In this document: positions 4,308-20,256 of the stretch, piece after piece | How positions within the stretch are numbered: the first letter of the stretch is position 1 | Layout of the letters: the number at the start of each line of letters is the position of its first letter | IMG/VR virus record: IMGVR_UViG_2734482531_000002 | Source: a virus | Lineage: Duplodnaviria; Heunggongvirae; Uroviricota; Caudoviricetes | Length of the DNA: 20,256 nucleotides | Reading direction: 5' to 3' (one strand) | The notes under the pieces: model-generated | Database searches by the model: none | What the model saw: the letters and a program-made list of their open reading frames with translations, nothing else | What the model was told of the DNA's origin: nothing | Translations under genes and position numbers: made by a program

Positions 4308-4582
4308 NNNNNNNNNNNNNNNNNNNNNNNNNNNNNNNNNNNNNNNNNNNNNNNNNNNNNNNNNNNNNNNNNNNNNNNNNNNNNNNNNNNNNNNNNNNNN
4401 NNNNNNNNNNNNNNNNNNNNNNNNNNNNNNNNNNNNNNNNNNNNNNNNNNNNNNNNNNNNNNNNNNNNNNNNNNNNNNNNNNNNNNNNNNNNNNNNNNNN
4501 NNNNNNNNNNNNNNNNNNNNNNNNNNNNNNNNNNNNNNNNNNNNNNNNNNNNNNNNNNNNNNNNNNNNNNNNNNNNNNNNNN
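4308..4582. other. Assembly gap (275 N)
   Basis: Uninterrupted run of n characters. It bridges the 3' end of K and the 5' end of I and creates artificial X-containing ORFs in the track. Confidence 0.98.
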
Positions 4583-4972: not shown

Positions 4973-5671
4973 TTACTGCGAAAGTTTGTTAATGGAAAGG
5001 AAGCCGCCAAAGTTGCCGACGTTATTGCGAAACTTACAGCCACTCAGGCATTTGCTGCATTTATCCTTCGTGATGTCGGACGTTGGCTGGTCATATTCAT
5101 CCGCGACCGCCGGACCGTGATAACCGCACTCATCGCCGCGATAGGTCCAGGTGCAGGTGTTGGCCAGCATGATACGTCCCGGAAAAACAGCGCCATCTGT
5201 TTCCGTCGGCGTGGACAGTACAAAAGAGGCACTCACCGCGCTCAGTTCGCTGCACTGCTCAATGCGCCAGCGGCTGATCACCTCCTGCTCCGGATCGGCG
5301 TCACTGTTTCCGTTGACGAAGTTCACCGCATCCAGAAAACGGGCGTAAACCTTACGCCGGACCACCGTTCCGCCGACCAGACTCTGTAGATCTTCCGCCA
5401 TCCCGGTGACCATACCGTACAGGTTAGAAACCATCAGCGTGGGGCGCGTACTGGTGCCTTTGCCATTCAGTTCAAAACCACTCCCCTGAATGGGATACGG
5501 CTGATACTGTCGCCCCTGCCAGGTGACCGGCTCACCTTTTTCGTTCTGCTCATTACAGAAAAAATAACGTTCTCCACCGACCTCTGTCAGATCGATTTCC
5601 CAGAGCACCACGCTGGCCGACTGCTCCGCACGGGTGCATTCATTCAGTGTTTCCTGCCGGATATCCTGCAT
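4973..5671 (-). CDS. L: Tail tip assembly protein L, 232 aa
   Basis: Full ORF, lambda gpL-like (MQDIRQETLNECTRAEQSASVVLWEIDLTEVGGERYFFC...), with the Cys-rich C-terminus. ATG overlaps the M stop (ATGA). Confidence 0.95.
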   Translation of the reverse strand: MQDIRQETLNECTRAEQSASVVLWEIDLTEVGGERYFFCNEQNEKGEPVTWQGRQYQPYPIQGSGFELNGKGTSTRPTLMVSNLYGMVTGMAEDLQSLVGGTVVRRKVYARFLDAVNFVNGNSDADPEQEVISRWRIEQCSELSAVSASFVLSTPTETDGAVFPGRIMLANTCTWTYRGDECGYHGPAVADEYDQPTSDITKDKCSKCLSGCKFRNNVGNFGGFLSINKLSQ

Positions 5672-6000
5672 CAGTTCACCACCTGTTCAAACTCTGCGCT
5701 GAACTCAACACGCAGCATACTGACCCGCGACGACCATTTTGCGCAGGTCACCTTTATCTGCCGCCACTCATAAGGCGGCGTCCACAGAAAGGCTTTCCAG
5801 CCCCCGTGCTCTTCCAGAAACGACTCCAGTACCATGGCCTCCTCACGGGGGACAGAAAGCGTCACGCTGTACGTTTTCAGGTTGGCATTCAGCCCGGCAG
5901 GCGCTCGCTGGGAATAGCCATCACCAAAGCGCACCTTTCTTACAGAAGGGGCCGAAGCCACATCCATACCGGGTTTCACTTTCCAGCGGAAGGTTTTCAT
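5671..6000 (-). CDS. M: Tail tip assembly protein M, 109 aa
   Basis: Full ORF, lambda gpM-like (MKTFRWKVKPGMDVASAPSVRKVRFGDGYSQRAPAG...). 4-nt overlap with H. Confidence 0.95.
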   Translation of the reverse strand: MKTFRWKVKPGMDVASAPSVRKVRFGDGYSQRAPAGLNANLKTYSVTLSVPREEAMVLESFLEEHGGWKAFLWTPPYEWRQIKVTCAKWSSRVSMLRVEFSAEFEQVVN

Positions 6001-8558
6001 CGTCCACCTCCGGAGAACAGGCCACCATCACGCATCTGTGTCTGAATTTCATCACGGGCACCCTTGCGGGCCATGTCATACACGGCCTTCATCATCTGTG
6101 GACCTGGCAGACCATTCGTACCGTCGTTCTGAATCACCACGTGATTGTTCTGATTAAAATTAATGCCTTCAGCCCGCCGCATCTGCGCCGGACTTCCGGC
6201 ACCGCCCACATAACCACCTTCCGCATAGCCGCGCATCAGCCGGTAGAGATTCCCCACGCCAATCCGGCTGGTTGCCTCCTTCGTGAAGACAAATTCACCA
6301 CGGTGAACAATCCCCGCTGGCTCATATTTGCCGCCGGTTCCCGTAAATCCCCCGGTTGCAAAATGGAATTTCACCGCAGCGGCCTGAATGGCTGTACCAC
6401 CTGACGCGGATGCGCCGCCACCAACAGCCCCGCCAATGGCGCTGCCGATACTCCCGACAATCCCCACCATTGCCTGCTTAAGCAGAATTTCTGTCATCAT
6501 GGACAGCACGGAGCGGGTGAAGCTGCGCCAGTTCTGTTCACTGCCGGTCAGCATCGCCGCCATATTCTGTGCAATACCATCAAAGGTCTGCGTGGCTGCA
6601 CTTTTAACCTGTGACATACTGTCCGTGGCGCTCTCTTCCCACTCACTCCAGCCGGACTTCAGGCCTGCCATCCAGCTCCCGCGAAGCTGGTCTTCAGCCG
6701 CCCAGGTCTTTTTCTGCTCTGACATGACGTTATTCAGCGCCAGAGGATTATCGCCATACTGTTCCTTCAGGCGCTGTTCCGTGGCTTCCCGCGCTGCCTG
6801 CCGGTCAGTCAGCCCCCGGTTTTTCGCATCAATGGCTGCCCGTTTTGCCCGTTGCTGCTGTGCGAATTTATCCGCCTGCTGCGCCAGCGCATTCAGGTGC
6901 TCCTGATACGTAACCTTGTCACCAAGTGCAGCCAGCTGGCGTTTGTACTCCAGCGTCTCGTCTTTATGCGCCAGCAGGGATTTCTCCTGTGCGGACAGCT
7001 GGCGACGTTGTGCCGCCTCCTCCAGTACCGCGAACTGACTTTCTGCCTTCCACAAATCCCGGCGCTGCTGGCTGATTTTCTCATTCGCTCCGGCATGCTT
7101 CTCCAGCGTCCGGAGTTCTGCCTGAAGCGTCAGCAGGGCCGCATGAGCACTGTCTTCCTGACGATCGCCCGCATACACCTTCACGCCGGACTGTTTCGGC
7201 TTTTTCAGCGTCGCTTCATAATCCTTTTTCGCCGCCGCCATCAGCGTGTTGTAATCTGCCTGCAGGATTTTTCCGTCTTTCAGTGCCTTGTTCAGTTCTT
7301 CCTGACGGGCGGTATATTTCTCCAGCGGCGTCTGCAGCCGTTCGTAAGCCTTCTGCGCCTCTTCGGTATATTTCAGCCGTGACGCTTCGGTATCGCTCTG
7401 CTGCTGCGCATTTTTGTCCTGTTGACGCTGTTGATCTACCCTCTTTTGGGCTGCATCCCGCTCCAGGCGTTTTTTTTCACGATCATCCCAGTAACGCGCC
7501 CGTGCTTCATCGTTAACGAAATAATCATCCTTGCGCAGATTCCAGATGTCGTCTGCTTTCTTAAACGCAGCCTCTGCCTTAATCAGCATCTCCTGCGCGG
7601 TATCAGGACGACCAATATCCAGCACCGCATCCCACATGGATTTGAATGCACGTGCAGTCCTGTCTGCCCAGGTCTCCAGCGTGCCCATGTTCTCTTTCAG
7701 GCGGCGGGTCTGGTCATCAAACCCTTTCGTTGCGGCCTCGTTCGCCGCCTGCAATGCCCCGGCTTCATCGCCGGAACGCTGCAACTGAGCAACATACGCA
7801 ATCTGCTCCGCCGTCACGTTATGGAACTGGCGTGCCATCGCCGTCAGCCCCGACGTCGGGTCTGTGGTCAGCTTCCCGAAGGCTTCAGCGACCTTGTCCA
7901 CCTCCACGCCGGATGCATAGGAGAAACGCGCCACACTCTGGCTGATGGACGCAATCTGAGCCTCACCGCTTACCCCCGCCTTAACCAGTGCGCTGAGTGA
8001 CTCGCTGGTCTGGTTAAACGTCAGCCCTGCCGCCTGCCCGGCTCTGGACAGGACCAGCATACGATCTGCCGTCAGTCCCGCCTGATTACCGGAAAGGACC
8101 AGCGTTTTGTTGAAATCGGACAGGGTTGAGTTGCCCTGATACCAGGCATACGCCAGCGCACCGGTCGCCACCGCCAGCGAGGTGGCCCCCACCATCGGCA
8201 GGGTGATCGCGCCGGCAAGCCCCCTGAACATGGGGATCATCCCGCCGAAGGAGTCCTTAACCTGACCACCCTGTTGCAGCAGGATCAGCCAGGGATTCTG
8301 CCCCCCTGCAAGCTGCGTGGCCACGTCGGTGAACTGTGCAGGCAGCATACGCATGGCGGCTTTATACTGCCCGACGGAAATCCCCGCTTTCTGTGCAGCC
8401 AGCGCCTGTCGGCTCAGCGACTGTTCAACGACTGCCGCTGTTTTTTTCGCATCACTTTCCGTACCGGAAAAATGACGCCTGACTCTGGCCATCTGCTCGT
8501 CAAATCTGGCCGCATCCAGACTCAAATCAACGACCAGATCGCCTACCGGTTCAGCCAT
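5997..8558 (-). CDS. H: Tail tape-measure protein H, 853 aa
   Basis: Full ORF of the same length as lambda gpH. Ala/Gln/Arg-rich coiled-coil centre and Gly-rich C-terminus. Overlaps the T frame at its 5' end. Confidence 0.96.
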   Translation of the reverse strand: MAEPVGDLVVDLSLDAARFDEQMARVRRHFSGTESDAKKTAAVVEQSLSRQALAAQKAGISVGQYKAAMRMLPAQFTDVATQLAGGQNPWLILLQQGGQVKDSFGGMIPMFRGLAGAITLPMVGATSLAVATGALAYAWYQGNSTLSDFNKTLVLSGNQAGLTADRMLVLSRAGQAAGLTFNQTSESLSALVKAGVSGEAQIASISQSVARFSYASGVEVDKVAEAFGKLTTDPTSGLTAMARQFHNVTAEQIAYVAQLQRSGDEAGALQAANEAATKGFDDQTRRLKENMGTLETWADRTARAFKSMWDAVLDIGRPDTAQEMLIKAEAAFKKADDIWNLRKDDYFVNDEARARYWDDREKKRLERDAAQKRVDQQRQQDKNAQQQSDTEASRLKYTEEAQKAYERLQTPLEKYTARQEELNKALKDGKILQADYNTLMAAAKKDYEATLKKPKQSGVKVYAGDRQEDSAHAALLTLQAELRTLEKHAGANEKISQQRRDLWKAESQFAVLEEAAQRRQLSAQEKSLLAHKDETLEYKRQLAALGDKVTYQEHLNALAQQADKFAQQQRAKRAAIDAKNRGLTDRQAAREATEQRLKEQYGDNPLALNNVMSEQKKTWAAEDQLRGSWMAGLKSGWSEWEESATDSMSQVKSAATQTFDGIAQNMAAMLTGSEQNWRSFTRSVLSMMTEILLKQAMVGIVGSIGSAIGGAVGGGASASGGTAIQAAAVKFHFATGGFTGTGGKYEPAGIVHRGEFVFTKEATSRIGVGNLYRLMRGYAEGGYVGGAGSPAQMRRAEGINFNQNNHVVIQNDGTNGLPGPQMMKAVYDMARKGARDEIQTQMRDGGLFSGGGR

Positions 8559-9389
8559 ACCGGACTCCTCCTGCGATCCCTTCTGATACTGTCATCAGCA
8601 TTACGTCATCCTCCGTCATGTCCGCCACATCCGGGGAAGCGGGGATAACTTCATTCCCGTCCGGGCCAAAGCGGACACCTCCGGCAAGCCCTGCCGCTTT
8701 CTGCATCAGCACATCATCTTCAGGCTCTTCGTCAGCCTCGCGCCGGTTCAGCAGACTGAAATCCAGCGGATGCATCTCCGGATCGCTGAAAAACAGGCTG
8801 AGCACGGTGTACGTCAGCCCGGAAAAGTGCATATCCAGCAGAACATCATGAAAATAATGGGTACTGTAAAAGCGGTGCCAGTCGGCATACTCCGTGGATG
8901 ACATCCCGGCAAGCATGGCGCGCCAGTCGGGTCGCCCCATCTCACGCGCCAGTTTCAGGGCAAAACTCAGCTCACCGTCGAACACTTTCCCGCAGAAACA
9001 GGCTCTGCAGGCCCGGCGTCCTCTGCCTGTTCAGGAGCATCATTCACCACAAACTCATACATACCGGACAGCCGGTACACCACGTTTTCAGCATGAGAAA
9101 TTGCCTCTGTGGGCCAGGTGGTAAGCACTTCCTGCTCAATCTGTTTAACGGCTTCATTCATGGACGGCATCTGCGTCTTCTTCGGATGGTTATGCCACAG
9201 GGACATCGCAACCACAAAAGCGCCGGTTCTGATGGCGTCTTCCACAGTAAACTTCCGGTTGCTGTCTGACTCCGCCTGTTCTGCCTGCCGTTTCATCAGG
9301 TCGAGATGCTCAATACGCTGCAGGGCTGACAGTTCAGAAAGCGTGACGGTCACACCGTTATGTTCAAATGATTCGGTTTTCAGGAACAT
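8551..9389 (-). CDS. T: Tail assembly chaperone G-T fusion, made by a programmed -1 ribosomal frameshift at 8985-8991
   Basis: The T reading frame (8551-8985) has no start of its own other than a GTG inside the slippery site and lies in the -1 frame relative to G. The slippery heptamer G GGA AAG sits 16 nt before the G stop, as in lambda G/T. Confidence 0.85.
8967..9389 (-). CDS. G: Tail assembly chaperone G, 140 aa
   Basis: Full ORF MFLKTESFEHNGVTVTLSELSALQRIEHL...SAGKCSTVS, lambda gpG-like. Confidence 0.95.
   Translation of the reverse strand: MFLKTESFEHNGVTVTLSELSALQRIEHLDLMKRQAEQAESDSNRKFTVEDAIRTGAFVVAMSLWHNHPKKTQMPSMNEAVKQIEQEVLTTWPTEAISHAENVVYRLSGMYEFVVNDAPEQAEDAGPAEPVSAGKCSTVS
8985..8991 (-). 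promoter_or_regulatory. -1 programmed frameshift slippery heptamer GGGAAAG (X XXY YYZ = G GGA AAG)
   Basis: Plus strand CTTTCCC at 8985-8991 is GGGAAAG on the minus strand. In the G frame it reads G-GGA-AAG; after a -1 slip the reading continues GKVFDGELSF..., which is the T frame. Confidence 0.85.
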
Positions 9390-9404
9390 CGCTGACTCTC
9401 CGGA

Positions 9405-10145
9405 TTAACTGGCGGTGACGTTGATTTCTGCAACCGCAGCAAACTCACCATTACCAGATACGACCGGAATGTTGACCTTGCCTGCAGCAACACCTTTCAC
9501 GGTGATGGTCATACCACTGACCGACACGGTGGCTTTTGTTTTATCCGCAGACACCGCACGGAAGCTCTTGTCGGTTGCGCCATCCGGCTGGAATGCCACG
9601 GTCAGCGTGGTGCTCTGCCCTTTCACTACGGAAGCACTGGCGGGTGTCACCGTCATGCCGGTCGTCGCCGTCACCGTGCTGCGATCTTCTGCCATCGACG
9701 GACGTCCCACATTGGTGACCTTCACCGTGCGGGTAATCACCTCCTTCGCCGTCACCGCCTTACCGATACTGCTGACCCAGCCACGGAACACATCGACCGT
9801 GCCGTTCGGGAAGCGGATTTTATAGGCACGGGTATCACCTTCATTAAACCACGCCAGCAGCGCCTGCTGCCCCTGCTCTCCGGGCATCCACGCCAGCGTG
9901 AAGCTGGTATCTCCGGCAGATTTCTGCCCCTGCCCGGTCGCAGTCCAGTCTGCATCTTCATCATCGAGATAGCTGTCGTCATAGGACTCAGCGGTCAGTT
10001 CGCCGGGCGTCAGGTCTTTAACTTTTGCCAGACGCGACCAGTCAACGTCTGAAAGCGGGTTCGCATAAGGGTCACCGCTCCCCTTATAAACCCACAGGGT
10101 GGTCCCGGCACCTTTCACCGGCATTGTAGGATTTGGTACAGGCAT
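9405..10145 (-). CDS. V: Major tail tube protein V, 246 aa, with C-terminal Ig-like (Big_2-type) domain
   Basis: ORF track begins at 10175, but the protein matching gpV starts at the internal Met ([22 protein letters not shown]...). The 10 upstream codons overlap the U 3' end; a GAGGA RBS precedes the internal ATG. Confidence 0.93.
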
Positions 10146-10152
10146 AGCGTCC

Positions 10153-10548
10153 TCACATTTCATAGATAATGACATAAGTCAGATCGGCTGAACTCCACAG
10201 GCCCGCATCATCGTCGCGCCGGTAGTCATAGCCGCTGGCCACCATACTGGTGATCAAATCTGACAGTGCCGGGATATCGCTCATCACAGGATAAATCCGG
10301 GACTCCATCCACGAATCCAGCTCTGAATCCGGCACCTGAGCAGGCAGGAAAACTTCAATATGCAGCTCCGCCTGCCAGGTATCGCTGTCCAGCTCTTCGC
10401 CCGTGTATTCAGCGCCGGTGAGATAAACGGCAATTGCCGGAAAATCTTCCTCATCAAAAACAGCGGGGCGACCATCAAAAAGCGTCGCCCCGGTGTCATG
10501 CTTCTCCAGTGCATCCAGTACGGCTGCACGGAGTTCAGTATGTTTCAT
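10153..10548 (-). CDS. U: Tail terminator protein U, 131 aa
   Basis: Full [36 protein letters not shown]..., lambda gpU-like. 4-nt overlap with Z. Confidence 0.95.
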
Positions 10549-11123
10549 CGCTTTATTACCATTCTCAGTTGATGCTGCAGCGCATAGCCCAGCTCTTTCG
10601 GAAGACGTTCACGCCGTATCCGTTCAATATTCTGTTTAAACGCCGTGGTCAGCGGCACCGCCATCGGGATTTTCACCACATCAATGGGGTAACGGTTTTT
10701 CCCGGCCACACGCTGCATAACATGCCACCGGCCGTTTTTCAGTTGCTGAATAAACGCGCCGGGAATACGACGGTTACCCACCACAAGCACGCTGCCGCCA
10801 CCTTTCAGGGATGAACGCTGCCCCTTTTTATGACGCCTGCGGCGGGACAGGACAACCCGCGCATTACCCAGCTTGATTACGGGCAAATCCCCCCGGTTAA
10901 CTTTGATTCTGGCCTGCGGATTTTTGACCGTGGCCCTTTTCAGCCTGGCCCTTTCCTTTACCAGTTTCCGGCGTACCTTTGTCTCACGGGCAACCTGTGA
11001 CGCAGACTGCGATATCGCGGATGAAGCAACGCGGTTAATGGCCATTGCGGCGGCACCGGGCACCGCCGTTTTGCTGATACGGCTGAGGTTTTCAACGGCC
11101 TGCTCAAGACCTTTTATGGCCAT
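10545..11123 (-). CDS. Z: Tail completion protein Z, 192 aa
   Basis: Full ORF MAIKGLEQAVENLSRISKTAVPGAAAMAINRV..., lambda gpZ-like. Confidence 0.95.
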   Translation of the reverse strand: MAIKGLEQAVENLSRISKTAVPGAAAMAINRVASSAISQSASQVARETKVRRKLVKERARLKRATVKNPQARIKVNRGDLPVIKLGNARVVLSRRRRHKKGQRSSLKGGGSVLVVGNRRIPGAFIQQLKNGRWHVMQRVAGKNRYPIDVVKIPMAVPLTTAFKQNIERIRRERLPKELGYALQHQLRMVIKR

Positions 11124-11134
11124 ACATCCCCCTT

Positions 11135-11488
11135 TCAGCGGCGACGGTTAACGGCAGGCGGTACGCCCCGTCCAAGCCAGAGATGACAACTTCCGCCATC
11201 ATCCGGCGAAACCCGATCTACCCAGAAATTTTCCTCACCGATGGTCAGCGTGTCTCCACGCCGCAGCTGCCGCACCTCATCAGTCCGGACAAACAGGGAC
11301 GGGCTGGAGCCTTCAACGCGCACGCCCTGTCCGGCATAGCTGATATTTTCAGGGTCATCAAAAACACCACGTATCACCGCACCTGACTGCTCACCGGATG
11401 TCATGGTGGCTGACGTTCCCATGTACCCGCGTATCGTTTCATCGGCGCGGGCAATGGCAGCATCGAACAGGTTATCGAAATCAGCCAC
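11135..11488 (-). CDS. FII: Head-tail joining / head completion protein FII, 117 aa
   Basis: Full ORF MADFDNLFDAAIARADETIRGYMGTSATMTSGEQ..., lambda gpFII-like. Confidence 0.95.
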   Translation of the reverse strand: MADFDNLFDAAIARADETIRGYMGTSATMTSGEQSGAVIRGVFDDPENISYAGQGVRVEGSSPSLFVRTDEVRQLRRGDTLTIGEENFWVDRVSPDDGGSCHLWLGRGVPPAVNRRR

Positions 11489-11499
11489 AGCGCCTCCCG

Positions 11500-11898
11500 T
11501 TATTGCATTCTGGCCAGGCCGCGCTCTGTCATTTCGGCTGCCACACCGGCAGAGACACGAAACGCCGTTCCCGGCAGCACAAATGCCACAGGTTTATCCC
11601 GCGTGGCGTGAAGTGCATCAGTATGCAGCGTCACCAGTGCCACGACCGTGACCAGTTCAGCCGTATCCTGAATCACGGTATCCGGCTGCGCTGATACCAC
11701 CTCATTTTCATGCCCGGTCAGCACATTTTCCCGGCTGAGAGGGGTGTCCTGACCGGCAGTTTCATCCGTGTCATCAAGCTCTTCTTCCAGCTCTGCCACA
11801 CGAAGCGCCAGTTCTTCTTTCGTTCCCGTCAAACTGACATCGCGGTTCAATTGCTCACCCAGCTCCTGAAGACGGGCAATCAGTTCATCTTTCGTCAT
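11500..11898 (-). CDS. FI: DNA-packaging accessory protein FI, 132 aa
   Basis: ORF track extends to 11937, but the gpFI match starts at MTKDELIARLQELGEQLNRDV... . That ATG (11896-11898) is preceded by a GGAGGAG RBS. The central DTDETAGQDTP linker is present. Confidence 0.9.
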   Translation of the reverse strand: MTKDELIARLQELGEQLNRDVSLTGTKEELALRVAELEEELDDTDETAGQDTPLSRENVLTGHENEVVSAQPDTVIQDTAELVTVVALVTLHTDALHATRDKPVAFVLPGTAFRVSAGVAAEMTERGLARMQ

Positions 11899-11939
11899 GA
11901 ACTCCTCCACAGAGAGAAAATGGCCCCGAAGGGCCATGA

Positions 11940-12965
11940 TTACGCCAGTTGAACGGACACGAACTCATCAGGATCAGCCAGCAGCATCAGCGGTGCTGAC
12001 TGAATCATGGTGAACTCACGCGCCGGATCGCCGGTGGTCACCCAGTTTTTCGGGTAACGGGCAGAAGCGTTAATGCCTTCGCGCTGTGCGTCCGCATCCT
12101 GAATGCAGCCATAGGTGCGCAGACCGCGAGCCTGAGTGTTCCCCAGCACCATCGTGTTGTCCGGCAGGAAGTTCTTTTTGACGCCGTTTTCCACGTACTG
12201 TCCGGAATACACGACGATGGCCACATCGCCATACATTCCCTTATAGGACACCGCTTTGCCCAGGTCTTTTACCGCTGTCTCCAGCTCGGAATGAGAGCCG
12301 CGACGGGTATCCAGCTTCTCCTTGACGGCTTTGAAGGAACGGAACAGCGCCCAGCCTTTCGGGTCAAACACGATGATATTCACCACACCGCTGGCGTTCA
12401 GCGCGTAGGCTTCGATATCGTCGGTCGGGTCATACGTGGACTTGTCACGCTTGCTCCACTCCGTGACGCCGGACTGTGTGATGTTGTTCGCCGCACTGCG
12501 GCCCATATCCACCTCAACCGGATCGAAGGCTTCACCGGTCATGGTGTATTTGCCCTTGAGCACGGCAGAAACTGCCTGCATCTCTTCGACCTGAGCAATG
12601 GCCAGCTCTTCGTCACGCATGTTCTGCATGATGATGCGACGGCGGCGGTAAGCCGGGTCCGCCAGATTCTGCGGATCTTCATCCGGCAGGCGACGCAGGG
12701 TCATCTGCGGATTCACCTCATGCTTGGGTTTGACATATCCCGGCGTAAATTCAGAGGTGGAGCCGCCACGGGAACGGATAACCTCACCGGAAACAATCGG
12801 CGAAACGTACAGCGCCATGTTTACCAGTCCCGGAATTTGTGAGAGATAGACTTTCTCCGTAGTGAAGGGATAGCTCTCACGGAAAAAGAGACGCAGAAAC
12901 AGCGGATCAAACTTAAATTTCTGCTCATTTGCCGCCAGCAGCTGGGCGGTTGTGTACATCGACAT
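11940..12965 (-). CDS. E: Major capsid protein E, ~341 aa
   Basis: ORF track extends to 12992; the gpE match starts at MSMYTTAQLLAANEQKFKFDPLFL... . Start coordinate is approximate (+/- 1-2 nt) because I could not verify the exact base at the ATG by eye. Confidence 0.93.
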   Translation of the reverse strand: MSMYTTAQLLAANEQKFKFDPLFLRLFFRESYPFTTEKVYLSQIPGLVNMALYVSPIVSGEVIRSRGGSTSEFTPGYVKPKHEVNPQMTLRRLPDEDPQNLADPAYRRRRIIMQNMRDEELAIAQVEEMQAVSAVLKGKYTMTGEAFDPVEVDMGRSAANNITQSGVTEWSKRDKSTYDPTDDIEAYALNASGVVNIIVFDPKGWALFRSFKAVKEKLDTRRGSHSELETAVKDLGKAVSYKGMYGDVAIVVYSGQYVENGVKKNFLPDNTMVLGNTQARGLRTYGCIQDADAQREGINASARYPKNWVTTGDPAREFTMIQSAPLMLLADPDEFVSVQLA

Positions 12966-13020
12966 AAAAAAATCCCGTAAAAAAAGCCACACAGGCGGCC
13001 TTTAGTGATGAAGGGTAAAG

Positions 13021-13353
13021 TTAAACGATGCTGATTGCCGTTCCGGCAAACACGGTCCGTTTTTTCGTCTCGTCGCTGGCAGCCTCCGGCCAGAGCACAT
13101 CCTCATAACGGAACGTGCCGGACTTGTAGAACGTCAGTGTGGTGCTGGTCTGGTCAGCAGCAACCGCAAGAATGCCAACGGCAGCACCGTCGGTGGTGCC
13201 ATCCCACGCAACCAGCTTACGGGTGGAGGTGTCCAGCATCAGCGGGGTCATTGCAGGCGCTTTCGCACTCAATCCGCCGGGCGCGGTTGCGGTATGAGCC
13301 GGGTCACTATTGCCCAGCGGCTGGTAATGGGTAAAGGTTTCTTTGCTCGTCAT
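13021..13353 (-). CDS. D: Capsid decoration protein D, 110 aa
   Basis: gpD match begins at [27 protein letters not shown]..., two codons inside the ORF-track start. Confidence 0.94.
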
Positions 13354-13362
13354 AAACATCCC

Positions 13363-13968
13363 TTACACTGGTGTGTTCAGCAAATCGTTAACGGCATCAG
13401 ATGCCGGGTTACCTGCAGCCAGCGGTGCCGGTGCCCCCTGCATCAGACGATCCAGCGCAGTGTCACTGCGCGTCTGTGCACTCTGTGGTGCTGCGGCCAG
13501 AATACGGCGGGCCGTTTCCACGGTCATACCGGGGGTTTCGGCCAGCACGCGTGCCTGTTCTTCGCGTCCGTGAGCCTCCTCACAGTTGAGGATCCCCATA
13601 ATGCGACTGTTTTCTGCCGCAACCGCTGCGGTGATCTGCGCGTTCACGTCCGGCTGCGCCGCGCTGGCGTTCTCGCCCTCCGTCGCTTGCACCACGCCAG
13701 TAACGTCAGCCTGCGAAGCAGTGGCTGAAACAGTTGTTGATTGAGTCTCTTTGGTCATTCGCCCTCCTGAGAGACGGGATTTACGTGCATCCAGTGCATC
13801 ACGCATGACGGTGATCGCATCGGTACTGTTAACAAGTTCATCAGCCAGTCCGGCATCAATGGCCTCCTGACCGCTGTACACTGCAGCCTCGGTATCCAGC
13901 ACAGCCTGCACGGACAGGCCGGTATATGCCGACACCTTCTGTGCAAACATCCGGCGGGTTGCATCCAT
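13363..13968 (-). CDS. Nu3: Scaffolding protein Nu3, nested in-frame in the 3' third of C (coordinates approximate)
   Basis: Placed by analogy with lambda, where Nu3 is the C-terminal ~201 codons of the C frame started from an internal site. The exact internal start was not verified base by base. Confidence 0.55.
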   Translation of the reverse strand: MDATRRMFAQKVSAYTGLSVQAVLDTEAAVYSGQEAIDAGLADELVNSTDAITVMRDALDARKSRLSGGRMTKETQSTTVSATASQADVTGVVQATEGENASAAQPDVNAQITAAVAAENSRIMGILNCEEAHGREEQARVLAETPGMTVETARRILAAAPQSAQTRSDTALDRLMQGAPAPLAAGNPASDAVNDLLNTPV

Positions 13969-14662
13969 CCGGGACTGCAATGTTTCCCGGACATCATCCG
14001 GTAGATGGCTGTAGGGGTTGCCATCCACCTTATGGCTGCCGCTGTAAATCAGCGTGATTTCCACGCCCTGTTTCTCCAGTGCAGCGCCGTAATTACTGTG
14101 AGCCATCATGACGCCGATGGAGCCTGTCCGGGCGGTCTGCGTGACCAGACGCCGGGAGGCGGCACTGGCAAGCAGCTGACCTGCGCTGCAGTTCATGTCA
14201 TTGGCCAGCGCCCATACCGGCTTTATGTCACGCACACGGGCGATGATGTCAGCGCAGTCAAATGCTCCCGCCACCATTCCGCCCGGTGTGTCCATATCGA
14301 GCAGAATGCCGTCCACCATCGGGTCGCTGGCAGCCTGTTGCAGACGGGCGATAATGCCGTTGTAACCGGTCATCCCCGAGTACGGCTGCAGCGCCCGCGT
14401 CCGGCTGACCAGCGTGCCGGACACCGGCAGCACGGCGATGCCGTTCATTACCTGATAACTGCGGGCCTGTCGTGGTCCGTCATCATCACCGGATAACGCC
14501 AGCGCCGCGGGTGCCTCTCCGGCAGTCAGGCTGTCGCCGGATACTGCATCCGTCAGGCAGCTGATCCCAAGCTGGCCTGCAAGCGCACAAAAGAAAACCC
14601 GCGCATAGGCGGGTTCAAGCATCAGCGGCTCATTAAAAGCCATGCTGGCAATATGCGGGAGA

Positions 14663-14682
<20 letters not shown>
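13363..14682 (-). CDS. C: Prohead protease / minor capsid protein C, 439 aa
   Basis: gpC-like sequence begins at VTAELRNLPHIASMAFNEPLMLEPAYARVFF... with an apparent GTG start at 14680-14682. Overlaps the B 3' end by 20 nt as in lambda. The long upstream ORF extension (to 14817) is B-overlapping read-through and is not counted. Confidence 0.9.
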
Positions 14683-18363
<3,681 letters not shown>

Positions 18364-18389
<26 letters not shown>

Positions 18390-18909
18390 TCAGCAACCCC
18401 GGTATCAGTTCATCCAGCGCGGCTGCTTTGTTCATGGCTTTGATGATATCCCGTTTCAGGAAATCAACATGTCGGTTTTCCAGTTCCGGAAAACGCCGCT
18501 GCACCGACAGGGGGATCCCGTCGAGAATACTGGCAATTTCACCTGCGATCCGCGACAGCACGAAAGTACAGAATGCGGTTTCCACCACTTCAGCGGAGTC
18601 TCTGGCATTTTTCAGCTCCTGTGCGTCGGCCTGCGCACGCGTAAGTCGATGGCGTTCGTACTCAATAGTCCCTGGCTGGAGATCTGTCTCGCTGGCCTGC
18701 CGCAGTTCTTCAACTTCCCGGCGCAGCTTTTCGTTCTCAATTTCAGCATCCCTTTCGGCATACCATCTTATAACGGCGGCAGAGTCATAAAGCACCTCAT
18801 TACCCTTGCCACCGCCTCGCAGAACGGGCATTCCCTGTTCCTGCCAGTTCTGAATGGTACGGATACTCGCACCGAAAATGTCAGCCAGCTGCTTTTTGTT
18901 GACTTCCAT
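18364..18909 (-). CDS. Nu1: Terminase small subunit Nu1 (cosB-binding), 181 aa
   Basis: Full ORF MEVNKKQLADIFGASIRTIQNWQEQGMPVLRGGGKGNEVLYDSAAVIRWY..., lambda gpNu1-like with an N-terminal winged-HTH. Confidence 0.97.
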
Positions 18910-18933
18910 TGTTCATTCCACGGACAAAAACAG

Positions 18934-19046
18934 AGAAAGGAAACGACAGAGGCCAAAAAGCCCGTTTTCAGCACCTGTCGTTTCCTTTCTTTTCAGGGGG
19001 TGTTTTAAATAAAAACATTAGGTTACGGCGAAGAAGAACGGAAACG
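18934..19046. promoter_or_regulatory. cosB: terminase (gpNu1) binding elements R1, R2, R3 with intervening IHF-site region
   Basis: Three copies of the R-element core (minus-strand sense CTGTCGTTTCCTTTCT-like): 18934-18949 and 18975-18990 form an inverted pair, and a third copy sits at ~19031-19046 (CGTTTCCGTTCTTCTTCG on the minus strand). They lie between the Nu1 start and cosN as in lambda cosB. Confidence 0.75.
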
Positions 19047-19086
19047 CCTTAAACCGGAAAATTGTCATAAATAGCGAAAACCCGCG

Positions 19087-19098
19087 CGCCTTCCGCCC
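19087..19098. other. cosN (12-nt cohesive-end / terminase nicking site); minus-strand sense GGGCGGAAGGCG
   Basis: Flanks align with the lambda left and right ends: CCCGCG on the Nu1 side and CGTAACCTGTCGGATC.CCGGAAAGGACCCG on the right-arm side. The 12 nt between them occupy the cosN position. Confidence 0.7.
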
Positions 19099-19297
19099 CG
19101 TAACCTGTCGGATCGCCGGAAAGGACCCGCAAAATGATAATAATTATCATCTACATGTCACAACGTGCATCTACGCCATCAAACCACGTCAAATAATCAA
19201 TTATGACGCAGGTATCGTATTAATTGATCTGCATCAACTTAACGTAAAAACAACTTCAGACAATACAAATCAGCGACACTGAATACAGGGCAACCTC

Positions 19298-19531
19298 ATG
19301 TCAACGAAGAACAGAACCCGCAGAACAACAACCCGCAACATCCGCTTTCCTAACCAAATGATTGAACAAATTAACATCGCTCTTGTTCAAAAAGGGTCCG
19401 GGAATTTCTCAGCCTGGGTCATTGAAGCCTGCCGCCGGAGACTGTGCTCAGAAAAAAGAGTTTCGCCTGAAGCAAACAAAGAAAAGAGTGACATTACTGA
19501 ATTGCTCAGAAAACAGGTTAGACCAGATTGA
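19298..19531 (+). CDS. Small ribbon-helix-helix (Arc/CopG-like) protein, YlcI/DUF3950-like, 77 aa
   Basis: ORF MSTKNRTRRTTTRNIRFPNQMIEQINIALVQKGSGNFSAWVIEACRRRL... : basic N-tail, then a beta-strand (NIRFP), helix, G-x-S/N turn, helix, which is the RHH signature. Resembles from memory the YlcI protein found next to the terminase gene in the DLP12 prophage. AT-rich relative to the structural genes. Confidence 0.7.
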   Translation: MSTKNRTRRTTTRNIRFPNQMIEQINIALVQKGSGNFSAWVIEACRRRLCSEKRVSPEANKEKSDITELLRKQVRPD

Positions 19532-19588
19532 AGCAATTTAGATAATCGTGCAGACTACGCCCCCTCATATCACATGGAAGGTACTACA

Positions 19589-19999
19589 ATGGCTCAGGTT
19601 GCCATTTTTAAACAAATATTCGATAAAGTGCGAAATAATTTAAACTATCACTGGTTTTATTCTGAACTAAAACGTCACAATGTCTCACATTACATTTACT
19701 ATTTAGCCACAGAGAATATTCATCTTGTTCTTGAAAACGATAATACGGTTTTAATAAAAGGACAGGGTAAGGTTGTAAATGTAAGATTTTCAAAAAATAA
19801 ATGCCTTATAGAAGCCACCTTAAAAGGATTCAAATCAGGAGAGTTATCATTTTACGAATACAGGAAAAATCTTGCTACAGCAGGGGTTTTCAGATGGATT
19901 ACAAATATCCACGAAAACAAAAGGTATTACTATACCTTTGATAATTCATTACTCTTTACTGAGAACATACAGAACACTACACAAATATTTCCGCACTAA
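19589..19999 (+). CDS. DUF1398-family protein, YbcV-like, 136 aa
   Basis: ORF track starts at 19574 (MEGTT...), but a GGAAGG RBS at 19577-19582 is correctly spaced for the second ATG at 19589 ([45 protein letters not shown]...). Sequence and length recall the DLP12 ybcV product. Low GC and AT-rich codon usage. Confidence 0.75.
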
Positions 20000-20256
20000 A
20001 TCATAACGTCCGGTTTCTTCCGTGCCAGAACCGGACTCGCTGGCATGATGAAATATGTGTACCCGGTAACCCCGGTGTGCATCGTTTTTGATTATTCCCG
20101 CACACTCGCGCAGAAGGAGTTCCCCGTCGGGCTACGGTCTCTGTTAATACGGGAATACGGCGACGATTGGATTTGCCCCTATATTTCCAGACATCTGTTA
20201 TCACTTAACCCATTACAAGCCCGCTGCCGCAGATATTCCCGTGGCGAGCGATAACC

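Follow-up and report, generated by a model that had tools for sequence, protein, structure and literature searches.

The two genes that lie right of cos in the window (the whole stretch of 20,256 nucleotides analysed here, a lambda-like prophage whose head and tail genes, likewise lambda-like, form a full set and whose late operon is on the minus strand) are almost certainly, to judge from their sequences, the ynfO-ydfO (ylcI/ybcV) accessory genes. Both families and their exact arrangement have been annotated before, not only in lambda and Escherichia coli K-12 but across most of the 5,426 complete E. coli genomes searched; the pair is a known unknown and not a new system. We consider it probable that the cassette consists of two separable accessory ('moron') genes, one for a ribbon-helix-helix (RHH) regulator and one for a conditionally expressed soluble protein, rather than of a two-component system. 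In lambda-like phages, the place of such ynfO-ydfO (ylcI/ybcV) accessory genes is between the lysis genes and cos. In the scenario we envisage, the first would provide a small, very basic RHH protein acting as a sequence-specific DNA-binding regulator, and the second a soluble, cytoplasmic protein of the YdfO fold, made from a promoter of its own that may overlap a PdhR box at the end of the first gene. In the lysogen, metabolic or chemical stress would bring about expression of the second gene; in the lytic cycle, in which the late transcript passes through it in antisense, it would not be expressed. The cassette as a whole may benefit the host.

Two genes and their products right of cos

The layout is as the first-pass annotation had described it, with two plus-strand genes (Table 1) that are separated by exactly 57 nt and run antisense to the late operon, ORF1 starting about 200 nt right of cos. 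Its description of the cassette as AT-rich likewise agrees with GC contents of 0.444 for ORF1, 0.439 for the spacer and 0.314 for ORF2, as opposed to 0.567 for the late operon (4973-18909); the Nu1 and large terminase genes lie at 0.53-0.54. Both ORFs are real genes, far beyond chance, and under purifying selection. Read in the plus frame, the RHH core of ORF1 (codons 1-50) shows dN/dS ratios of 0.06-0.10 against Stx-phage homologues (dS 0.8-1.5, with synonymous sites near saturation), and for ORF2, compared with its lambda and Qin alleles, they are 0.23-0.30. For ORF2, an upstream ATG at 19574, which many gene callers choose, would extend the protein to 141 aa; this start has no Shine-Dalgarno sequence, and the RefSeq annotation of the ORF2 counterpart gives 136 aa.

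Table 1. Features around cos and the two-gene cassette, in positions of the window
Feature	Position	Strand	Remarks
Terminase large subunit gene	16464-18389	-	late gene
Nu1-like small subunit gene	18364-18909	-	late gene
cosN	19087-19098	-	reads GGGCGGAAGGCG, a minority variant of lambda GGGCGGCGACCT; flanks identical to lambda
Inverted repeat ATCAATTATGACG / CGTATTAATTGAT	19196-19228		13-nt arms, 7-nt gap; 70-100 nt 5' of ORF1; candidate operator
ORF1	19298-19531	+	77 aa, YnfO-type YlcI/YnfO (DUF3950) protein
PdhR-box-like palindrome AACAGGTTAGACCAGAT	19512-19528		overlaps the 3' end of ORF1
Promoter-like site of ORF2	19519-19546	+	TAGACC, 16 nt, GATAAT; 9/12 matches; tentative; best of the region
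Shine-Dalgarno sequence GGAAGG of ORF2	19576-19581	+	serves the ATG at 19589; kept in all spacer variants
ORF2	19589-19999	+	136 aa, DUF1398 protein, YbcV/YdfO subfamily
Right-hand mosaic joint of the module	20167-20168		homology with most relatives ends at 20167

ORF1 belongs to the YlcI/YnfO family, as seen from matches to Pfam DUF3950 (E 2e-20; 72.8 bits, cut-off 25), to NCBIfam YlcI_YnfO_N (NF041551; 35.2 bits, cut-off 30) and to phrog_949 (E 6e-33), and it conforms to the family pattern of 60-80 aa proteins encoded on the opposite strand beside the cos and terminase genes of lambdoid prophages. The protein (pI 10.9, without a hydrophobic segment) is made up of a basic N-terminal arm and an RHH core (aa 1-50), in which the arm and beta-strand RRTTTRNIRFP are nearly invariant, followed by a variable C-terminal tail (aa 51-77) that comes in at least five unrelated versions among homologues with a nearly invariant core. 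Its predicted strand-helix-helix core is the hallmark of ribbon-helix-helix proteins and, together with a G-x-x-N/S turn, resembles that of Arc/Mnt/CopG-type repressors and of RHH antitoxins, and the strand motif xNIRFP recalls FNLRWP of Arc and FNFRMP of Mnt; unlike the toxin-binding tail of antitoxins, the C-terminal tail of ORF1 is not conserved. An hhalign comparison with eight RHH sequences placed TRNIRFP in register with QFNLRWP of Arc (E 0.0067, at a probability of only 5.7%), and searches of PDB and Pfam gave no significant sequence matches to solved RHH proteins. Most likely, we infer, ORF1 codes for a sequence-specific DNA-binding regulator.

That the second protein is a DUF1398 member, as previously proposed, is borne out by a match to the entire Pfam model (E 3e-43). 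It also has the YdfO fold, with E 3e-67 and 75% identity by global alignment to PDB 2HH8 (YdfO of E. coli K-12, solved by NMR), and this combination of profile match and fold identifies ORF2 as DUF1398/YdfO-like. Identities to YdfO, YbcV and the lambda copy are 75-77%, and E. albertii and phages PhiR49_1, Kati and ev099 carry copies 100% identical to ORF2. Residues Y35, N43, W103, R112 and Y114 of YdfO/YbcV are invariant. Predicted properties (basic, pI 9.4, no hydrophobic segment or signal peptide) are those of a soluble, cytoplasmic product. The secondary structure runs through a helix-helix-strand-strand-strand pattern twice and the two halves align locally in hhalign (E 0.011), which weakly suggests an internal duplication within DUF1398. 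The fold itself is an orphan that has no assigned function and no similarity to any toxin.

ORF1 and ORF2 share a reading frame, with one TGA and 19 sense codons between them, and protein databases hold 'fusions' of the ORF1-ORF2 type (P0014, 233 aa, 761 members). A fusion made by stop-codon read-through was rejected on two grounds. The 233-aa entries have W at the position of the stop, where the DNA has TGA, and the DNA does not yield them under table 11, so that in our view they stem from gene calling with a code that reads TGA as Trp. Among 79 related loci, moreover, 28 have the two genes out of frame, owing to a poly-C tract of varying length, and 11 carry an additional in-frame TAG. Programmed read-through is refuted.

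Relatives in K-12, lambda and other genomes

The closest known arrangement is that of ynfO (b4533) and ydfO (b1549) in the Qin prophage of K-12, where the order is identical (nohA, ynfO of 77 aa, 57 nt, ydfO of 136 aa) and the pair stands in the same strand relation to nohA and cos. YnfO is 97% identical to ORF1, including the 77-aa type of tail, and YdfO is 75% identical to ORF2, the DUF1398 allele of the window being a distinct variant. Qin further differs in being a remnant, in contrast to the window prophage with its full lambda-like head and tail genes. In K-12, DUF1398 has a solitary paralogue, too (ycgX).

Contrary to the first-pass annotation, which held that lambda carries different ORFs right of cos, homologues of both genes are present at the lambda right end, where an unannotated ylcI-like ORF, lambdap80 (ybcW-like) and lambdap79 (ybcV-like) lie between bor/Rz and cos and in the orientation seen in the window. 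DLP12 similarly has ylcI, ybcW (on the other strand) and ybcV beside nohD. Identity to lambda at the DNA level is about 98% over window positions 16401-19460, a stretch spanning the terminase genes and the RHH core, and the same PdhR box precedes the DUF1398 gene in lambda and DLP12. What sets these two apart from the window is about 560 bp with ybcW on the other strand, which is inserted between the two genes, so that some 730-850 nt, including a gene of opposite direction, separate the RHH gene from DUF1398. The RHH protein of lambda and DLP12 also has a different, shorter tail (the 64-aa YlcI type), and their DUF1398 allele is 76-77% identical to ORF2. Homology of the window with lambda and DLP12 ends within the RHH tail, at 19460, and restarts after the ybcW insertion at 19511-19515 (19515 for lambda, 19511 for DLP12 and one other locus), near the PdhR-box-like palindrome. 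Taken together with those at 19058 and 20167, this gives mosaic joints at 19058, 19460, 19511-19515 and 20167.

A moron-like character of the cassette is upheld by its deviant GC and its opposite strand. Further in line with it, the Stx phages examined (YYZ-2008, JLK-2012) lack DUF1398, and lambda has ybcW inserted. In deviating in GC, in being transcribed against or independently of the late operon and in being dispensable (present or absent among related phages), the cassette resembles bor, lom and other lambdoid morons. Bor and Lom, however, are outer-membrane proteins with known phenotypes, whereas the ORF1 and ORF2 products are predicted to be cytoplasmic.

For a census in E. coli, a query of 1257 bp (window 19000-20256, from cos to the window end) was compared with 5426 complete genomes. 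At least part of it is matched in 5205 of them and at least 80% of its length is covered in 2634, with a median of four matching places per genome for this cos-to-cassette query. Genuine distant members of DUF1398 occur in Enterobacteriaceae and Bacteroidota. An even broader spread (Brevibacillus, Arcanobacterium, Pedobacter, S. aureus and others) was rejected as it looks like contamination with lambda control DNA, the contigs being about 3.5 kb or about 48.5 kb long.

Sequence elements and expression

In the cos region, the cosN form of the window is found in eight of the related loci and the canonical form in 80. GGGTCCT at 19122-19128 (minus strand) is a cosQ-like element, and the surrounding region is about 98% identical to lambda. 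The inverted repeat upstream of ORF1 is kept in lambda and missing upstream of the Stx-phage homologues, and a search for an operator or DNA motif that lambda-type and Stx-type RHH genes have in common in their flanks found none; the repeat is a candidate operator only. A promoter search of the window sequence revealed no good sigma-70 promoter upstream of ORF1, the terminator signal 3' of ORF2 is not significant (z -1.0), and Rfam gave no credible RNA family in 18800-20256. With neither an ORF1 promoter nor a terminator after ORF2 found, the classic anatomy of a moron is therefore incomplete.

At the junction of the two genes, the palindrome AACAGGTTAGACCAGAT, the promoter-like site of ORF2 and the restart point of lambda homology coincide. 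PdhR boxes with the same core as this palindrome were mapped by genomic SELEX between ybcV and ybcW and at ynfO/ydfO; both ybcV and ybcW are PdhR-dependent, and deletion of pdhR lowers ybcV mRNA 10-fold (PMC7660256). Based on the promoter-like site, the PdhR box and these published data on the K-12 homologues, ORF2 is probably transcribed from a promoter of its own which overlaps the PdhR box. Conservation of this promoter-like site is imperfect, since the -10 element of the lambda copy, as read off the alignment, lies 3 nt further from the -35.

Such an overlap between promoter and PdhR box would make expression of ORF2 in the lysogen conditional, and gene order implies that in lytic growth the late transcript must run antisense through both genes. 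The K-12 homologues reside in cryptic prophages without late transcripts, yet according to the literature they are transcribed and regulated. In addition to the PdhR dependence of ybcV, ydfO rises 116-fold (by qPCR) under an imidazolium ionic liquid in a growth-phase-dependent manner, and its expression changes upon DicC induction. Hence the earlier suggestion that the cassette is expressed in lysogens finds support in the transcription of the cryptic-prophage homologues, albeit in a conditional and not a constitutive sense.

Two further observations on expression and fitness were set aside. A reading in which H-NS silences these genes drew on ybcV and ybcW going up more than 1000-fold when T4 MotB is expressed in BL21(DE3), but S and R of lambda DE3 rise equally, and the signal may stem from read-through of the late operon or from the DE3 copy by cross-mapping. 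A TraDIS call of ydfO as 'essential' is uninterpretable for a multi-copy gene.

One module or two separate genes

Whether the two genes form one module can be judged from their distribution. In phage records searched by tblastn, the RHH gene is found in 155 and DUF1398 in 43. Stx phages YYZ-2008 and JLK-2012 have the RHH gene alone, between the lysis and packaging modules and diverging from HNH-terS-terL. Conversely, DUF1398 occurs alone, with no RHH or Nu1 gene nearby, in Klebsiella, Raoultella, Pseudocitrobacter and Kluyvera, and as a single gene in Epilithonimonas and Chryseobacterium (Pfam E 2.5e-32) as well as in three metagenomic contigs with varied neighbours; distant DUF1398 neighbourhoods (aryl-polyene cluster, fimbrial operons, esterase, ttcA/dbpA) showed no recurrent partner. 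The two genes are separable. Among the 80 closest viral loci 79 keep both genes adjacent, with spacers of 56-59 nt in relatives owing to a poly-C tract of varying length, and a functional link is possible because of this adjacency, though these loci are near-identical to each other and not independent. The same adjacency, and the succession of a small RHH gene and another small gene on one strand, speak for a type II toxin-antitoxin system in which an RHH antitoxin represses the operon and neutralises a DUF1398 toxin via its C-terminal tail. The first-pass annotation had likened the cassette to toxin-antitoxin and phage-exclusion modules, a comparison that our findings do not support. Type II systems are obligate pairs and these genes are found apart; where an antitoxin would have a conserved toxin-binding region, the tail of ORF1 is hypervariable while DUF1398 is kept, and a variable tail on an invariant core (dN/dS <0.1) is the opposite of what a toxin-binding role would lead one to expect. 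In lambda and DLP12 the pair is even split by the ybcW segment, with the RHH tail replaced and DUF1398 retained. Nor does ORF2 resemble known toxins or, like ORF1, have a credible match in PADLOC, and it appears to have a promoter-like site of its own. The NMR structure of YdfO is that of a single chain (2HH8), and the protein was presumably made in E. coli without a partner, as is usual practice in structural genomics. Expression of ybcV from a T7 promoter came with no report of toxicity, and a ybcV::kan mutant exists. To our minds, a toxin-antitoxin function of the pair is very improbable.

Superinfection exclusion or anti-phage defence expressed from the lysogen, as had also been suggested, would suit the position and orientation of the cassette, which are like those of bor and other lysogen-expressed genes, its AT-rich accessory DNA, the transcription of the K-12 homologues from cryptic prophages and the orphan fold of DUF1398. 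We nevertheless hold it to be distinctly unlikely. PADLOC-DB 2.0 returned only Csx23 at E 0.023 for ORF2, which is not credible, and nothing for ORF1; DUF1398 also occurs as a lone gene on chromosomes, Bacteroidota included, in non-phage surroundings that vary; no phenotype of either gene was found in the literature searched; and near-universal presence in E. coli, at a median of four query-matching places per genome, fits a diversifying defence gene poorly. Another reading sees the RHH protein in the service of the phage, as a regulator or DNA-binding factor at the lysis-packaging junction or at cos, and DUF1398 as an unrelated passenger. It gains from the finding that the RHH gene occupies the same antisense place beside the first packaging gene whether the packaging system is Nu1/A, as in lambda, or HNH-terS-terL, as in Stx phages YYZ-2008 and JLK-2012, and from the strongly constrained core and wider occurrence of the RHH gene compared with DUF1398. 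The RHH gene is, moreover, among those listed for capsid-forming PICI satellites of Enterobacter. Because the gene is transcribed against the late operon, however, synthesis of its product late in infection is improbable; lambda-type and Stx-type flanks have no DNA motif in common, and the gene is kept in long-dead cryptic prophages. The cassette region is not known to be needed for lambda growth, and on balance we regard a phage-serving role of this kind as unlikely. The least credible of the alternatives, and one we regard as scarcely tenable, is that the DUF1398 gene codes for a structural protein, as stated in many database records. PHROG 413 is labelled 'head protein', and GenBank/RefSeq records say 'putative envelope protein' or 'head protein', but these labels carry no evidence. 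They are unsupported by a basic protein without signal peptide or hydrophobic segment whose gene is antisense to the late operon and whose homologues include single chromosomal genes outside phages and a small, soluble monomer solved by NMR.

In a variant that we consider doubtful, the YlcI/YnfO protein would be an unrecognised, near-universal lambdoid regulator instead of a passenger, and DUF1398 a separately acquired, PdhR-wired and stress-responsive one. In its favour are a DNA-reading arm and strand that hardly vary, the PICI listing and an antisense location kept across phages whose terminase systems are unrelated. Given that no shared operator lies nearby, the RHH protein could then recognise a conserved site in host or phage, and if so it could control read-through of the late operon into the packaging genes or, in the lysogen, host genes. 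Of the two genes, the RHH gene is the better experimental target: it is much more strongly constrained, more phages have it than have DUF1398, and its place is always the lysis-packaging junction. Its DNA target, if found, could explain a conserved, unstudied piece of the lambda genome.

For annotation, our findings mean that the two genes should not be labelled or screened as a toxin-antitoxin or defence pair. They are 'y-genes', named, nearly ubiquitous in E. coli and with one solved structure. ybcV was overexpressed in work on sabinene tolerance, but the three genes that brought an improvement did not include it. YdfO overexpression has been said to raise resistance to oxidative stress (PMC4077768, citing Wang 2010). 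Wang 2010, though, reports on YfdK, YfdO and YfdS of CPS-53 and never mentions ydfO. We therefore reject an oxidative-stress function of YdfO; the only published phenotype for the cassette goes back to a mix-up of gene names with YfdO.

Lambda right-end DNA in public assemblies

The lambda right end (S, R, Rz, bor, ybcV, ybcW, ylcI) is present in dozens of public assemblies from unrelated taxa, where it takes the form of ~3.5-kb contigs or of the ends of ~48.5-kb contigs, and these copies are almost certainly sequencing-control DNA. The Nanopore control strand is itself a 3.6-kb amplicon from the lambda right end. The apparent host range of the DUF1398 and YlcI/YnfO families is inflated by such contigs, one of which a paper presents as an Arcanobacterium hippocoleae plasmid.

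Related loci (L-numbers) and related proteins (P-numbers) from the searches, with a labelled reference gene
Feature	Locus or record	Coordinates	Source	Proteins
YlcI/YnfO gene	L151	2501-2728	Stx phage YYZ-2008	
YlcI/YnfO gene	L152	2501-2701	Stx phage JLK-2012	
Lambda right-end copies	L019-L047			P0019-P0048, P0147, P0202
Example of such a copy	L024		Arcanobacterium 'plasmid'	
Example of such a copy	L023		Brevibacillus	
Example of such a copy	L032		Pedobacter	
DUF1398 gene under a phage-record label	NC_001416.1	47048-47452		

The cohesive end and the borders of homology

The cosN of the window (19087-19098, minus strand) reads GGGCGGAAGGCG as against GGGCGGCGACCT in lambda, while the sequence that flanks it is identical to lambda's. 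This variant is common to eight related loci, the canonical form being found in 80. The window thus pairs a different 12-nt cohesive end and a lambda-like terminase (~98% DNA identity), which could affect cross-packaging. In Stx phages YYZ-2008 and JLK-2012, the YlcI/YnfO gene sits at the junction where lambda has it too, although their packaging module is unrelated: here, the gene is divergent from that of an HNH endonuclease, which lies ~40 nt away and precedes terS-terL. Beside the YlcI/YnfO gene of these two phages, DUF1398 is absent.

On the right, homology between the window and most of its relatives stops at 20167, and the following 77 nt (20168-20244) match E. coli IH5 sequence situated next to a 'chaperone of endosialidase' fragment upstream of nohD. 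An ORF across this border (20045-20254) matches phrog_20197 in its C-terminal part. To our minds, 20167/20168 looks like a mosaic joint or a rearrangement at the place expected for lysis genes.

Within the tail genes (K/I region), 275 consecutive N occupy 4308-4582, and GC in the composition profile falls to ~0.19 there. An AT-rich island at this position was considered and rejected, the dip being due to masking or an assembly gap.

The DUF1398 gene, its product and its labels

Between a -10-like element and the Shine-Dalgarno sequence of the DUF1398 gene (ORF2) lies a C run (19558-19565) that varies from 4 to 7 C among 79 related viral loci, which is why their spacers between the YlcI/YnfO gene (ORF1) and ORF2 range from 56 to 59 nt. 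Homopolymer sequencing error may account for this variation, or the slippage may be real. The ORF2 protein (19589-19999) appears to consist of a two-helix, three-strand unit duplicated in tandem: its secondary-structure pattern recurs in residues 1-66 and 67-130, and hhalign of the two halves gives a local match (E 0.011).

The sole published functional statement for YdfO is resistance to oxidative stress (PMC4077768). We reject this statement as a mis-citation, since the source cited for it (PMC3105296) treats YfdK, YfdO and YfdS of prophage CPS-53. In RefSeq and INPHARED phage records, the DUF1398 gene is named either 'head protein', a name taken from PHROG 413, or 'putative envelope protein'; both names suit poorly a protein that is soluble and whose gene runs antisense to the late operon.
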